Origin: Alphaproteobacteria bacterium
GTDB taxonomy: Bacteria; Pseudomonadota; Alphaproteobacteria; RF32; CAG-239
Assembly (NCBI GenBank): GCA_017464685.1
Contig: JAFTYO010000003.1
Span: 8,137 to 72,136, forward strand
Length of the DNA: 64,000 nt
Direction of reading: 5' to 3'
A program made the translations under genes and the position numbers. Shown here piece by piece: positions 7,500 to 44,446 of this stretch (the first letter of the stretch is position 1; each line of letters starts with the position of its first letter). The notes under the pieces are model-generated. The model was not told the origin of the DNA. It searched no databases and was given only the letters and a program-made list of their open reading frames with translations.

Positions 7500-8267
7500 A
7501 TGGCAAAAGAAGTAAAAATTTCAATTCGTAATTTACACAAAGCTTTTGGCAAGAAAAAAGTTTTAAATGGGGTTGATTTAGATGTCGAGGCCGGAAAATC
7601 TCTGGTGGTAATCGGCGGTTCGGGTACGGGAAAATCGGTGTTGATAAAATGTATTCAAGGACTGTTGATACCGGATATGGGGTCGATAAAAATTGATGAT
7701 GCGGAAACTGTCGGAGCCAAAGGCAATAAATTGAAAGATTTTCATTCTAAAATGGGTATGCTTTTTCAGGGCGGAGCATTGTTTGACAGTTTGAGTGTGT
7801 GGGAAAATGTGGCATTTTCGCTTTTGGAAAATAAAAAAGTGGCCAGAGAAAAAGCAAAAGTTGAAGCTATCAGGGTTTTAAGACAAGTAGGCCTTGCTCC
7901 CGATGTGGCTGATTTGTCACCATCTGAATTATCGGGTGGAATGCAAAAAAGAGTAGGCTTGGCACGAGCTATTATCACAAAACCTGAAATAATCTTTTTT
8001 GATGAGCCTACCACCGGACTTGACCCGATTATGGCCGATGTGATTAATGATTTGATTGTCGAATCGGCTAAAGGATTGGGGGCAACAACACTTACCATCA
8101 CCCATGATATGGCATCGGTCAGGAAAATTGCCGATAAGGTGGCAATGTTATATAAGGGAAAAATTATATGGCAGGGTACGGTTAAAGAAATGGATAAAAC
8201 CGACAATCCGTATGTGCAACAGTTTATAAACGGGTGTTCGCAAGGACCGATTAAGGTGGAAGTATAA
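7500..8267 (+). CDS. mlaF: MlaF-family ABC transporter ATP-binding protein
   Basis: Walker A GGSGTGKS, ABC signature LSGGMQKRVGLARA and Walker B IIFFDEPT. Confidence 0.85.
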   Translation: MAKEVKISIRNLHKAFGKKKVLNGVDLDVEAGKSLVVIGGSGTGKSVLIKCIQGLLIPDMGSIKIDDAETVGAKGNKLKDFHSKMGMLFQGGALFDSLSVWENVAFSLLENKKVAREKAKVEAIRVLRQVGLAPDVADLSPSELSGGMQKRVGLARAIITKPEIIFFDEPTTGLDPIMADVINDLIVESAKGLGATTLTITHDMASVRKIADKVAMLYKGKIIWQGTVKEMDKTDNPYVQQFINGCSQGPIKVEV

Positions 8268-12206: not shown

Positions 12207-13094
12207 ATGTATAATTATCCAAAATATCAATCTTATGAACAAACTTACGACACAGGATATTCGAATAAGAATTTTCTTAATAAGCTTAAAGAATATGCCA
12301 ATCGGCAAAGATACTATGATACTATGTATGGAGGTTGGCATGGTATTGGTTGGAAAAATAATATAATGAGAACATTAACCCCAGATTATGATAATTTTTT
12401 AAAACCAAATAATATGACAGAACAGGGTATTAAGTATGCTCAAAATAACTATTCCGGTGTTGTAGCCGATACTAGTTATTATGACACTTATGATAGAAAT
12501 GTTGATTACTATTTTAATCGTGATAAAAATGATTTGTGTGAAAATGAAGGTGGATTTATACCATATGCCTATTTAGATACAGCTAAGCCACCAAAAACTA
12601 CCATAGGTTGCGGTATAAACATTGAAGATATTCCAAATGTACAATTATATCATGCTCAAACCGGAAACATTTTAAGTGATGAAGAATTACAATCAGAAAT
12701 GGAAAAATTAAAAGAATCGTATTTACATAATGGTAAACCGTCTTTTTATGAGAACAAATCAAATATTCGCATTGCGCAAGAAGAAAATGACCGTATAATG
12801 AAAATGTTATATACGCAAGGATATAATCATATGTTATCAAAATATCCTGATTATCATAGTTATACTCAAGGCAGGCAGAAATATTTAATGGATATGATAT
12901 ATAATTTAGGCCAACCTAAGTTTGATAAATATGTTAATATGCGTGATGCTATTTTACAAAATAATTGGAAACAAGCGGCTAATGAGGCATGGCGTTGTGG
13001 AGTTGATTTTGGTAGGAACAAAAGAACACTTGATAATATGTATCCGGGATTAAATGTTTATGAAATAAGTAAGGAGCATTGTAATTATGATTGA
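12207..13094 (+). CDS. GH24 (phage/T4-type) lysozyme-like protein with a Tyr/Asn-rich N-terminal extension and no signal peptide
   Basis: CENEGGFIPYAYLDTAKPPKTTIGCGIN matches the lysozyme E...D...T-I-G-x-G catalytic core. C-terminal W..AANEAWRCG..GRNKR. The N-terminus MYNYPKYQSYEQ is not hydrophobic. Confidence 0.6.
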   Translation: MYNYPKYQSYEQTYDTGYSNKNFLNKLKEYANRQRYYDTMYGGWHGIGWKNNIMRTLTPDYDNFLKPNNMTEQGIKYAQNNYSGVVADTSYYDTYDRNVDYYFNRDKNDLCENEGGFIPYAYLDTAKPPKTTIGCGINIEDIPNVQLYHAQTGNILSDEELQSEMEKLKESYLHNGKPSFYENKSNIRIAQEENDRIMKMLYTQGYNHMLSKYPDYHSYTQGRQKYLMDMIYNLGQPKFDKYVNMRDAILQNNWKQAANEAWRCGVDFGRNKRTLDNMYPGLNVYEISKEHCNYD

Positions 13095-37697: not shown

Positions 37698-37766
37698 TAA
37701 TTGGAGCGGGCAATGGGATTCGGACCCACGACATCAACCTTGGCAAGGTTGCGCTCTACCCCTGAG
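37692..37766 (-). tRNA. tRNA-Gly (anticodon GCC), CCA encoded
   Basis: The reverse complement GCGGGTATAGCTCAGGGGTAGAGCGCAACCTTGCCAAGGTTGATGTCGTGGGTCCGAATCCCATTGCCCGCTCCA folds into a cloverleaf. It has a 7-bp acceptor stem, anticodon loop TTGCCAA, and T arm GTGGG/CCCAT. Confidence 0.9.
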
Positions 37767-37953
37767 CTATACCCGCATCATTTCGATGGAGTATTTAATA
37801 TCATATTAAAAATAAAATGCAAGTATTTTTTTTATATTTTTTTATTTTGTTGCATCGTATTGTTTTTTCTAAATATTTTAAGCTCTTGTGAATGAAACGA
37901 TATAAAAGTTTGAATGTTTTTCAAAATAAGTTATGCTCGAAAAAGTTTAAATT

Positions 37954-39397: not shown

Positions 39398-39421
39398 TTG
39401 TTTATAAAAAGGAAAAATAAA

Positions 39422-39790
39422 ATGAAAAAAATTTTAAATATTGTTTGTGCAATGTTTTTGTTTGGCTGTAATCAAGCAGATGTTAAACTTTCGGGAGATT
39501 ATAAAATGATAAATGCGCCTGAAAACTCTGAAATTACATTAAGCTTTGAGGAAAATAATTTTTCCGGTCTTGCCGCGGTAAACAGATATTTCGGAACTTT
39601 TGAACAAAATAAAAATGTTGTCAAATTTAATGTTGCGGGTTTAACAATGATGATGGGACCCGAAAACTTAATGCAAGCAGAACAAGAATATATTAAGAAA
39701 TTAAATCAAGTTGATGCTTTCGTATTGAAAAATGATTCGCTTATTTTAAAAACAAAAGATGGAGCAGAAATTAAATTCAAACATATATAG
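39422..39790 (+). CDS. META/HslJ-domain lipoprotein
   Basis: Lipobox MFLFGC. META-like NNFSGLAAVNRYFGTF...GLTMMMGP. Confidence 0.65.
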   Translation: MKKILNIVCAMFLFGCNQADVKLSGDYKMINAPENSEITLSFEENNFSGLAAVNRYFGTFEQNKNVVKFNVAGLTMMMGPENLMQAEQEYIKKLNQVDAFVLKNDSLILKTKDGAEIKFKHI

Positions 39791-39865
39791 AATATGTTAT
39801 CTAAATATTAACCATTAATACGATAAAAATAGCTAAAACTTTTAATTAATATTGAGGTATTAGCT

Positions 39866-42800
39866 ATGTCTTTAAATCGCAAATTTCGTGCAATTGTTGC
39901 TCTTATAACAGTCGTATGTTTTAGTTATAATTCATATGCAGCATCTTCCCAAGTGGTTGATTCGCTGTATAATTATGCCCACAATAAACAAGTTAGTAAA
40001 ATTAAGTATATGCTTAATACTATGGGGTATGATATTGATGTTGAAGATGAAGACGGAGTTACTGCTTGGTGCTTAGCTAAAGAAAGCAACGATACTTGTG
40101 CGATGGGCGTATTGGAGCAAATGGGTGCCGATACGGAACAAAGATGTGGTTTACCTTGGGGTTACATTGGTGCAGCTGCCGGTGTGGTAGCGGTAGGTGG
40201 TGCAATTGCAGCCGCTGCCGGTGGCGGCGGTGGCGGATCGGATCCGTGTTCGGGTGTGGTTTGCGGAGATAATGAGCATTGTTTGAAAGGACAATGTGTA
40301 TGTAATGCCGGTTTCTTAGAATTTGATGATGTTTGTTATCCGGATTTAAATTGTTCAGCACAAAAAAATTCTGATGGAAAACAATATAAAGATGCATGTA
40401 ATTGTATAAACGGATTTTCAGGAAATTTATGTACCGAATGTACCGGAGTTTTAGGAAATGATGGTATCTGTTATGAAAAATTGGATTGTGGTCAAGAACA
40501 TCAAGGTTATCAGCAAAATGGGGCCTGCATATGTATAAATGATTATAGTGGAACGGATTGCCAAACATGTAATGGACATGATGAAAGTCAAACTTGTTGG
40601 GAAAAACTTGATTGCGGTGATAACGGATATCAGAAAAACAATGAATGTCATTGTGAAAACGGTTATACAGGGGAAAATTGTCGTACGTGTGACGGACAGA
40701 TTGGTATTGATGGTAAATGTTATCCGACAGCTACATGTTTAAATGGAGGATATCAGATAAACGATGGTTGTAAGTGTATCAATGGTTACACCGGAGTGTT
40801 GTGTGAAACATGTAATGGTTATGAAGAAAATGGTACATGTTGGGAAAAACTCGAATGTGGTGATCATGGAACTCAAAAAAATGATATGTGTGTTTGTAAA
40901 GACGGTTATTCGGGAAGCGATTGTACTACATGTACGGGTTATGTTGGAGCTGATGATGGTATTTGTTATTCGGATGTAAGATGCGCAAATGGTGGAACAC
41001 AAGTTGGAGGAGTTTGTGATTGTACAAATGCCAACGGTTATAGCGGAACATACTGTGATGTTTGTGAAGGCGTTGTTCAAAATGGTATTTGTTACGAAAA
41101 GAAAGAATGTCAAAATGGCGATCAGGTAGCAAATGAGTGTGTATGTGATAAAAATTGGGACGGTGAGTTGTGTGATGTTTGTCCTACATATCTGCAAGAT
41201 GGTATATGTTATGATAAAGTAGAGTGTCAAAATGGCGGAACTCAAGATAAATACGGTTGTGATTGTACAAATGCCAACGGTTATAGCGGTGAGTTATGTG
41301 ATGTTTGTGCAGGAACGAAACAAGGCAGTGTATGTTATCCTACATTAACCTGTAATAACGGGACGCAAGTTGAGAACAGATGTGAATGTTATGAAGGCTA
41401 TGATGGTGCGGATTGTACGGAGTGTGCTACAGGATACGATCATTATGGTGATGAAACTCAGTGCTATAAAACTTTAGAAAGCGAAGATTGTGTACATGGT
41501 TCTCAACAGGGCAACAATTGTGTGTGTGAAGGTTATTGGAGCGGTACTAAATGTGACACCTGTACAGGTGTTGAGCAAGATGGTGCTTGTTATCAAACTC
41601 TTGAGTGTGGAGAACATGGCACACAAGTAGGAAATACTTGTGAATGTGAAGAAAATTATTATCGTGATGGAACAGGTAAATGTGTATCATCAAGTGATGC
41701 GGTAACGATGAATACCTTTGACGGTAACAATAACTATATGTTTAATGAATCCGTTTCAAAAACCCAACAAAATTATGGTGATGTATATGGTTTGGTATAT
41801 GATGCAGATCCGGCAAATCCGACTAACCATATTACGGGTGATCAATATGATATGTATATTAATTATCTCGATAATGAGGAAGAATCGGACGAAGTTAAAA
41901 ACACCAGAACTTTAACTCTTAATAACTTGGGTGATGGAAATGTTTACGGTGTGTATTCCAAGAATGCCGAAAATATGTATTTGACATATCTTGATTTACA
42001 GGCAGCAGTTACTCAAGGAACACAGACAACAAATCTTACCATTAATAACGGTGGTGAAATAGTAGGTACTCAAGGTCTTGTAAGTGGTGGAAATGGTGAG
42101 GTGTATGGTATTTGGAGTACCGGTTCCACAGATGTTTATAATATGGCACAGGATTTGGGTACGGATATTGACAATACGGTAAATATGTCATCTGAAATAA
42201 ATATTAGCGGTATCGGAACGGGCGATCTCTATGGTATGTATAATAATGAATACGGAAATTTAAACAATGGGTTATACGATGTTGTAGAGGATAAAAACAT
42301 AATAACCGATAATGCTGTTATAAATGTGGAAAGTAAGGGCTCAGGTACAGTATATGGAATGAGGAGCTATGGTGGTAATATTATTAATTCCGGTGTTGTT
42401 GATGTTTCAAGTGCATCAGGTGATGCACATGGTATATATGTCGATGATTTAGGGGATGTTCTTAATTTACACAAGGTTATTGTTGAAGGTAATAAGTCTG
42501 ATGCTACCGGTATTGACAATCGTGGTTATGGTGATGTGACAAATTCAGGTACTGTTGATGTTTCCGGAAACACGAGCAGTATGTGGGGTATTTTTTCATC
42601 ATCGGGCTTAGTATCAAATCAAGGAACGGTAACTGTTACAAATAATTCAGGTTCTGTTTCCGGTATTCATGCTTCAGATAGCAGTGTGGAAAATTCCGGA
42701 GCCATAACGGTTTCCAATACAGGAGATAATCCTGCTTATGGTATTTATACTACAAATAATAGTGTGGAAAATTCCGGTGATATAACGGTTTCCAATACAG

Positions 42801-44446: not shown

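Follow-up and report, generated by a model that had tools for sequence, protein, structure and literature searches.

How a bacterial autotransporter could carry and export a passenger packed with cysteines is the question raised by a gene at positions 39866..44446 (forward strand) of the DNA analyzed here, a 64,000-nucleotide window from contig JAFTYO010000003.1 of an uncultured alphaproteobacterium (assembly GCA_017464685.1, lineage CAG-239). The gene encodes a 1526-amino acid protein that ends in KYNF. We class this protein as a type Va autotransporter whose passenger composition is unprecedented and whose N-terminal leader is conserved. From N- to C-terminus it comprises a signal peptide, ankyrin repeats, a Gly/Ala and poly-Gly segment, a Cys-rich array related to epidermal growth factor (EGF) modules, a repetitive solenoid, and a barrel; the identity and order of these domains and their conservation in a family of relatives are direct observations. 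A first-pass annotation, made from the sequence alone, had listed a signal peptide, an ankyrin-like repeat, a 25-residue Gly/Ala hydrophobic stretch, about 11 tandem six-Cys modules (each with an exact EGF signature), a beta-helix-type passenger, and a type Va barrel ending in Phe. The literature on autotransporters with EGF-like or ankyrin domains yielded no account of such a passenger, and a 2012 autotransporter survey mentions neither domain. The protein is already deposited in NCBI, ENA, and nr; an NCBIfam scan of it matched no family, autotransporter models included.

Domains of the passenger and translocator

Profile searches and structural models assign the C-terminal region to the type Va translocators. 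Pfam Autotransporter (PF03797) matches amino acids 1267–1504 with an E value of 9.3e-21 (75 bits against a cutoff of 26), and AlphaFold (AF2) models the barrel with a predicted local distance difference test score (pLDDT) of ~90. Foldseek comparison of the C-terminal model with the PDB returned EstA (E 5e-14), AaaA, NalP (TMt 0.79), EspP, AIDA-I, BrkA, and Hbp, with E values from 5e-14 to 1e-7. These matches and the terminal Phe agree with the barrel proposed in the first-pass annotation and argue against a C-terminal domain of any other kind. In the model, a 24-residue linker helix (amino acids 1229–1252) directly precedes the first barrel strand.

The passenger segment adjoining the linker is built from the motif G.AYGIY......V.N.G.I.V, which recurs at a spacing of 25–26 or 52–53 amino acids. 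The AlphaFold model of amino acids 613–1526, generated from 15 homologues, has a predicted TM-score (pTM) of 0.69. Amino acids ~812–1172 form regular three-strand solenoid rungs (pLDDT 85–97), and amino acids 613–812 are of low confidence. The 26-amino acid periodicity and the modeled rungs are compatible with the beta-helix-type passenger suggested earlier over amino acids ~812–1172. Tandem Repeats Finder (TRF) identified a 78-nucleotide tandem repeat at 42662–42826 (2.1 copies, 86% identity) that corresponds to two adjacent 26-amino acid rungs and is the sole recent duplication in the gene. The Cys pair C1058/C1063, at the end of the solenoid, is like the lone pair that some autotransporters are reported to have (PMC9769942).

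The N-terminal 600 amino acids of the passenger are clearly not a beta-helix. They include a Cys-rich region that extends from C128 to C606 (nucleotides 40247–41683) and contains 70 Cys divided into 12 modules, designated M0 to M11. The extent of the array given in the first-pass annotation stands, but its count rises from about 11 six-Cys modules to 12, the last of which has five Cys. M1–M10 share the consensus C[YW]xxLxCxxGxQxxxxCxCxxGYxGxxCxxCxGxxxxDGx. The sequence C-x-C-x5-G-x2-C, the PROSITE EGF_1 type signature (PS00022-type), is present exactly in eight of the 12 modules, and two more (at amino acids 384 and 465) have x7 in place of x5; its attribution to every module was thus slightly overstated. 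In 5000 composition-preserving shuffles of amino acids 126–612 (487 residues), 0.20 matches were expected by chance and the maximum was 3. On average, two modules are 42% identical in protein sequence and 61% identical in DNA sequence, and TRF found no DNA tandem repeat over the Cys-rich region. The array is therefore old, in line with the earlier view that the modules have diverged and do not stem from recent tandem amplification.

Domain searches did not lead to a bacteria-specific Cys repeat without an EGF fold. The whole protein matches Pfam EGF_TEN with an E value of 6.4e-8, which is under the gathering score of that long model. Scans with single modules gave mostly matches to EGF_Teneurin, EGF_2, EGF_laminin, EGF_Tenascin, and EB; M5 passes the gathering threshold for EGF_Teneurin (25.0 bits versus 24.3), and M0 has weak matches to EB, EGF_2, and Pvs28-EGF. 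Across 64 modules drawn from this protein and its relatives, none of the seven Cys columns varies, and the consensus reads CYxxLxCxHGxQxxxxCVCxxGYxGxxCxxCxxGYxxxDGxCY. The Pfam families touched by these modules include EGF_laminin (51/64), EGF_Teneurin (47/64), and EGF_2 (39/64), along with a few DUF and non-EGF families. When compared with the PDB, the 64-module profile retrieved almost solely EGF-containing proteins (DLL4 at 9e-5, Notch1, reelin, perlecan, netrin, laminin, and EGF), the lone exception being an FNIP1 chain. Alignment of the module profile with the canonical six-Cys EGF repeats of the bacterial proteins P0003–P0005 using hhalign gave a probability of 97% and an E value of 1.2e-10.

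Structure prediction points the same way. The AlphaFold model of amino acids 27–615, built from an alignment of three sequences (the window protein and its homologues P0001 and P0002), has a mean pLDDT of 70.6 and depicts the array as a string of beta-hairpins (pLDDT 66–81). The best Foldseek match of this array is EGF20–24 of Notch1 (E 4e-7), followed by DLL1, Jagged1, NELL, NELL2, and the I-EGF modules of integrin beta at probabilities of 0.9–1.0; SCARF1 and laminin beta1 were also matched. Profiles and predicted folds together place the Cys modules in the EGF superfamily. M1–M10 are best described as a six-Cys, laminin-type-like variant and not as textbook EGF modules.

The canonical C1–C3, C2–C4, C5–C6 bonding pattern cannot arise in full in the ten repeating modules, and only M0 has canonical spacing. 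In the hhalign alignment, module Cys 2, 3, 4, and 5 align with canonical C2, C4, C5, and C6, and a near-invariant Gln aligns with canonical C3. Because Gln occupies the C3 position, the C1–C3 bond cannot form in M1–M10, which by elimination leaves the remaining two Cys to pair with each other. In the resulting putative disulfide map, the replacement bond would connect the second Cys of C-x2-C to the C[YW] that opens the next module, similar to the C7–C8 loop of laminin-type EGF, and each module would contain three short-loop disulfides with loops of ≤14 residues. The even total of 70 Cys in amino acids 128–606 fits a fully oxidized exported domain.

The region ahead of the array is predicted to form two ankyrin repeats (amino acids ~28–94). 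A profile of 33 family N-termini matched ankyrin-repeat proteins in the PDB with an E value of 3e-44 and the 126-amino acid four-repeat ankyrin 1n0r with an E value of 1e-17 over profile positions 28–90. In a phmmer search of 1.84 billion representative proteins, amino acids 1–245 retrieved many large ankyrin-repeat proteins over amino acids 33–107, with E values down to 1e-15. AlphaFold places four helices in this region (amino acids 28–39, 43–52, 67–73, and 77–85; pLDDT 81–86), and the family members P0046 (Ank_4, 25.5 bits; cutoff, 22.7) and P0053 match Pfam ankyrin models. The window protein alone had no Pfam Ank match at E<1 and no significant ankyrin match in a single-sequence PDB search; the ankyrin signal surfaced only with the family profile. 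The ankyrin-like repeat that the first-pass annotation had read at amino acids 61–89 is thereby confirmed. Two Cys never vary within the family. Cys69 takes the place of His in "TPLH", and Cys94 follows GA[DN] by seven residues. Their conservation suggests that a Cys69–Cys94 disulfide could cap the ankyrin domain after export.

By inspection, the protein begins with a signal peptide that has a basic n-region and a hydrophobic core, and the 33 aligned family N-termini show, with few exceptions, a comparable n/h/c region with an A-x-A-like site, which upholds the earlier assignment. Lipoprotein anchoring was ruled out, since the sequence lacks a lipobox and Cys18 varies among the aligned family members. 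Between the ankyrin repeats and the array lies the Gly/Ala run of amino acids 99–124, GYIGAAAGVVAVGGAIAAAAGGGGGG, which closes in G6 and corresponds to the hydrophobic stretch of the first-pass annotation. On the Hessa scale, the Gly/Ala segment sums to +0.4 to +4.5 kcal/mol, a borderline range for insertion into a membrane. AlphaFold models this segment and the poly-Gly run as disordered (pLDDT <30).

The metagenomic family and its leader

The window protein is one member of a sizeable metagenomic family. The strongest matches in the search of 1.84 billion proteins were family members with autotransporter C-termini, and full-length relatives with the same domain order include P0022 (1344 amino acids, 52% identity over the N-terminus), P0024–26, P0036, P0071, P0080, P0100, and others. 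The shared order is signal peptide, ankyrin, variable linker, Gly/Ala segment, poly-Gly, EGF-like modules, YGIY solenoid, and barrel; the linker between the ankyrin and Gly/Ala segments spans 0–100 amino acids across the family. Locus L001 encodes the same architecture within a different gene neighborhood.

The leader, which consists of the signal peptide, ankyrin repeats, Gly/Ala segment, and a poly-Gly run of 5–11 residues, was found in at least 33 of 123 representative clusters, and the two ankyrin Cys and the poly-Gly run are invariant across the 33 family N-termini. The same leader precedes Peptidase_S8 (subtilase) domains in P0046, P0053, and P0078, in which the beta-rich C-terminus differs and a Pfam scan did not report PF03797. 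Its presence ahead of these passengers indicates that the leader is a portable module; it also heads other types of Cys-rich module (L007). By eye, the leader precedes subtilase domains in P0063, P0083, P0085, and P0091 as well.

Several relatives vary the theme. Other Cys-rich modules, with patterns such as C.GY....C..GY.....C.SG...Y.C and CxxxxCxxGCYTNLxC...GGCExC, alternate with the EGF-like modules or replace them in L007:4166–8017, P0001, P0023, P0062, P0078, and P0141. In P0045 (3644 amino acids), solenoid and EGF-like blocks alternate several times. P0010 is shortened to 518 amino acids: its leader and about three Cys modules run straight into the barrel at a common "TGY" (C.ECATGY/ENYANTMYF), as the result of either natural deletion or chimeric assembly. 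The C-terminus of P0022 is nearly identical to that of the window protein, yet a scan of multiple proteins reported no PF03797 match for it at E≤0.001, which looks like a filter artifact.

Stop-codon recoding was considered for three related loci whose genes are split, and it was ruled out. L005 and L007 are split by scaffold N-runs in the repetitive passenger (L005:5328–5457 and L007 ~7980–8000), so that each gene is called as two open reading frames with no frameshift, and only L001 has a real TAG. The L001 gene (9932..16474) contains this single in-frame TAG at 12350–12352, where the EGF signature needs W or Y (CACDEG*AGSNC), and its reading frame carries on past the TAG into the solenoid and barrel; the gene is either a pseudogene or carries a sequencing error. 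A scan of contigs that used a two-sequence full-length alignment, with EGF-core peptides as patterns, found only the Bacteroidota EGF loci L003 and L004 and no family members.

Export and fate of the passenger

We consider it probable that the protein is a classical monomeric type Va autotransporter that builds a surface fiber from its solenoid, an EGF rod, and an ankyrin cap. The architecture suggests that Sec would export the protein and that the signal peptide would be cleaved. The 12-strand C-terminal barrel would then insert in the outer membrane, and the passenger would be threaded outward with its C-terminal end first and its N-terminal end last. From the membrane out, the molecule would consist of the helical linker, the beta-solenoid stalk, the 12-module EGF rod, the poly-Gly and Gly/Ala segment, and the two-repeat ankyrin cap. 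Display of the passenger at the cell surface is likewise predicted from sequence and models. In animal proteins, EGF modules in tandem make stiff rods, with a length of ~2.5–3 nm per module; 12 modules would thus add ~30 nm. The array could serve as a stiff, protease-resistant, disulfide-stapled spacer or as a binding surface, with its distal end held tens of nanometers from the cell, and the whole molecule may act as a surface fiber or adhesin. A role of the EGF array in adhesion or host mimicry is conceivable; the passenger shows no feature that would mark it as the mimic of a specific ligand, for instance a DSL domain.

Several observations weigh against the surface-fiber model. Disulfide-forming passengers hinder type Va translocation (PMC1533851), and natural autotransporter passengers usually carry at most one Cys pair (PMC9769942), which makes ~35 disulfides mechanistically awkward for this pathway. 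Most modules of the window protein, taken singly, are under the Pfam gathering thresholds, and M1 matches nothing. The three-sequence AlphaFold model of the N-terminal half has a pLDDT of ~70 and a pTM of 0.24, and the top 50 Foldseek matches of the C-terminal half, a list dominated by barrels, lack a solved beta-helix passenger structure. Finally, the Gly/Ala and poly-Gly segment is conserved, yet the model gives it no role.

The first of these difficulties may have a simple answer. Consecutive Cys in the Cys-rich region are never more than 14 residues apart, so that all loops are short on the putative disulfide map. Short disulfide loops are reported to be tolerated in autotransporter export (PMC1533851), and a passage of PMC9769942 that cites Leyton 2011 says the same. 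Short loops may reconcile ~35 disulfides with type V export.

It is tempting to speculate about the segment to which the surface-fiber model assigns no role. Tentatively, and with considerable doubt, we propose that the leader is a previously undescribed, portable N-terminal autotransporter device of one alphaproteobacterial lineage that sets the fate of the passenger N-terminus, either by retention in the periplasm, the poly-Gly strand being lodged in the pore or next to it, or by insertion in a target membrane, and that the EGF rods exemplify the handling of ~35 disulfides by type V secretion. If this were true, the view of autotransporter cargo as necessarily near Cys-free would be revised. 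Re-anchoring at the surface is a third candidate role, put forward as a hypothesis.

The retention alternative can be drawn as a passenger tethered at both ends, which we regard as unlikely. The exported ankyrin domain would fold in the periplasm and, locked by Cys69–Cys94, be unable to traverse the barrel, the poly-Gly and Gly/Ala strand would lie in or beside the pore, and the EGF rod and beta-helix would form a surface loop; the leader would be a built-in stop or anchor common to several passenger types. Retention of the leader in at least 33 clusters ahead of different passengers, Peptidase_S8 included, is in keeping with such an anchor, as are the invariant Cys pair and poly-Gly run and the marginal hydrophobicity and modeled disorder of the Gly/Ala segment. 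In stalling experiments with EspP, folded N-terminal domains reportedly stall autotransporter passengers. However, the 12-strand barrel is already occupied by the linker helix in the AlphaFold model, and the sequence gives no pointer to the destination of the ankyrin domain, which may be exported last and fold outside. We know of no natural precedent for a passenger tethered at both ends.

Still less probable is a membrane-active tip, in which the Gly/Ala segment, with its many small-xxx-small spacings, would insert like that of VacA in a host or prey membrane and the ankyrin domain would thereby reach or cross that membrane. A hydrophobic Gly/Ala/Val/Ile stretch of 19–25 amino acids with GxxxG/A spacings is conserved family-wide near the mature N-terminus of the passenger, as in VacA, and ankyrin repeats are typical effector modules. 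Yet Pfam Gly-zipper and VacA models gave no match at E<1, hydrophobicity is marginal, and the VacA segment lies at the extreme N-terminus, whereas here a folded domain and a linker of 0–100 amino acids come first. The invariant Cys pair favors an oxidizing destination for the ankyrin domain over a cytosolic one.

A different kind of objection is that the Cys modules are not EGF-related and instead constitute a bacteria-specific repeat, for example metal-binding CxxC/CxC knuckles that mimic the EGF pattern. Both C-x-C and C-x2-C are present in each module, the sub-threshold Pfam scores and unmatched M1 could be read in this way, and AlphaFold may lean toward EGF because of the Cys pattern. We consider this very improbable in the face of the hhalign match to bona fide EGF repeats, PDB and Pfam matches that are nearly all to the EGF superfamily, and Foldseek probabilities of 1.0 to Notch, DLL, and Jagged; in addition, the protein has a Sec signal and an even Cys count, and its conserved Gly and aromatic positions match those of EGF. 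Least credible is recent capture from a eukaryote to imitate a specific host ligand such as a Notch ligand. In its favor, arrays of Notch, Delta, and Jagged match best in structure, and both EGF and ankyrin modules are far commoner in eukaryotes. Against it, a search of 5.8 billion proteins with amino acids 1–620 gave five matches, all in bacterial-type context, and the strongest matches in the 1.84-billion search were autotransporter family members. A diverged bacterial family shares a module consensus of its own (Cys3 to Gln, extra hairpin), the region's G+C (0.39) is near the window average, and DSL, C2, and calcium-binding EGF motifs are all absent. The 5.8-billion search, the module consensus, and the base composition reveal no sign of recent eukaryotic origin.

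Gene features and comparison with known systems

The 1526-codon open reading frame reported in the first-pass annotation is a genuine gene, flanked by a ribosome-binding site and a terminator (Table 1). Upstream neighbors are the housekeeping genes alaS, truA, tRNA-Gly, and murA together with a META-domain lipoprotein gene, and those downstream are Sir2, sppA, gatA/gatB, and uvrC, likewise housekeeping; G+C in the region is 0.37–0.39, near the window average. The META-domain gene (39398–39790, same strand) encodes a small protein with a lipobox-like LFGC, lies 75 nucleotides upstream of the autotransporter gene, and is not kept beside the homologous genes in L001, L005, or L007. The tRNA-Gly (GCC) at 37702–37776 on the reverse strand is the sole RNA family match within the window. 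The peak GC skew of the window (0.378, bin 40001–42000) coincides with the Cys/Gly/Asp-rich EGF-like array and is therefore probably a codon-composition effect and not a replication signal.

Table 1 Position of the predicted features of the autotransporter gene and its product in the window
Feature	Amino acids	Nucleotides	Strand	Basis
Shine-Dalgarno-like GAGG, 8 nucleotides before ATG		39854..39857	+	Sequence reading
Sec-type signal peptide, MSLNRKFRAIVALITVVCFSYNSYA, followed by A	1-25	39866..39940	+	Inspection; n/h/c regions, SYA/A site
About two ankyrin repeats	28-94	39947..40147	+	Family profile, AF2, phmmer
Gly/Ala/Val hydrophobic segment, then invariant poly-Gly	96-124	40151..40237	+	Conserved in 33 family N-termini
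Module M0, six-Cys EGF-like, canonical spacing C-x4-C-x5-C-x4-C-x-C-x10-C	128-157	40247..40336	+	Cys spacing
Modules M1-M10, ten six-Cys EGF-superfamily modules of 39-45 amino acids	157-574	40334..41587	+	Profiles, Pfam, AF2
Module M11, terminal five-Cys EGF-like; its last Cys closes the array	575-606	41588..41683	+	Cys pattern
Repetitive beta-solenoid passenger, rungs of ~26 amino acids	613-1177	41702..43396	+	Motif periodicity, AF2
Close Cys pair C1058/C1063 near the C-terminal end of the passenger	1058/1063	43037..43054	+	Sequence
Small helical junction and long alpha-helical linker	1178-1252	43397..43621	+	AF2 pLDDT ~90
Type Va beta-barrel translocator, terminal KYNF	1257-1526	43634..44443	+	Pfam, Foldseek
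Intrinsic terminator, 12-bp stem (44448-44475) and T-rich tail, beginning two bases past the stop codon		44448..44485	+	

In comparing the protein with type Va autotransporters that have beta-helix passengers (pertactin, AIDA-I, EspP, Hbp, and BrkA), we noticed both close likeness and a marked difference. All share a Sec signal, a solenoid passenger (predicted here from periodicity and modeling), a helical linker, a 12-strand PF03797 barrel with a terminal Phe, and a Cys pair near the passenger C-terminus. Unlike these proteins, the window protein devotes its N-terminal 600 amino acids to two ankyrin repeats, the Gly/Ala and poly-Gly segment, and 12 EGF-like modules with 70 Cys; typical autotransporter passengers have 0–2 Cys (PMC9769942; PMC1533851).

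The modules resemble laminin-type EGF (LE) in that a C-x-C-x5-G-x2-C core is followed by C-x2-C...C, and their C-terminal half (the C5–C8 equivalent) is LE-like. However, they have six Cys in 39–45 (~41) amino acids, whereas LE modules have eight Cys (four disulfides) in 50–60. The full LE pattern C-x(1,2)-C-x5-G-x2-C-x2-C-x(3,4)-[FYW]-x(3,15)-C is present in only one module of the window protein, and Pfam EGF_laminin is sub-threshold on these modules (best 16.7 bits against a cutoff of 21). Like the EGF arrays of animal laminin, teneurin, and Notch, the array is tandem and would be rod-like, and EGF_laminin and EGF_Teneurin are the commonest Pfam matches of the modules; unlike them, it has a conserved Gln at canonical Cys3, lacks calcium-binding motifs, and is predicted to be displayed on a bacterial outer membrane. 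Bacterial canonical EGF arrays (P0003–P0005, and L003 and L004 from Bacteroidota metagenome-assembled genomes) have a homologous core with ~33–34% identity over the array. Those repeats keep the classical six-Cys, 30-amino acid pattern in non-autotransporter proteins (TIR_2 or WG_beta_rep contexts) and have no ankyrin and Gly/Ala leader.

Two autotransporter types offer parallels for the leader. VacA of Helicobacter pylori is an autotransporter with an N-terminal hydrophobic GxxxG (glycine-zipper) region, and the window protein likewise has a Gly-rich hydrophobic segment near the N-terminus of a type Va passenger. In contrast to VacA, it has no toxin-like domains, its segment lies between a folded ankyrin domain and an invariant poly-Gly run, and there is no sequence match. 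NalP and SphB1 are subtilase autotransporters with an N-terminal lipid anchor, and the leader of the present family also precedes Peptidase_S8 passengers. The analogy suggests that the leader, like lipidation in NalP and SphB1, may control the fate or retention of the passenger N-terminus. Unlike those proteins, the family has no lipobox, and the device would be proteinaceous, made of the ankyrin domain and the Gly/Ala and poly-Gly segment.

Among bacterial systems for surface display, autotransporters are the simplest and the most widely engineered, and what mainly limits their practical use is that cargo with disulfide bonds or a preformed fold is exported poorly (PMC1533851). The present family is a natural instance of a 480-residue, 70-Cys EGF-type rod and a folded ankyrin domain on a type Va translocator. 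It thus lends itself to testing how cargo of this kind is secreted, with short disulfide loops, late oxidation, and special chaperoning as the options, and it may provide a scaffold for the display of disulfide-rich proteins. It also adds a structurally distinct bacterial branch to the EGF superfamily, in which Cys3 is replaced by Gln and a laminin-like hairpin is added, and it has a conserved N-terminal leader common to adhesin-like and protease passengers. The host lineage is known from metagenomes only, and large surface proteins such as this one are among the few clues to its interactions with its surroundings.

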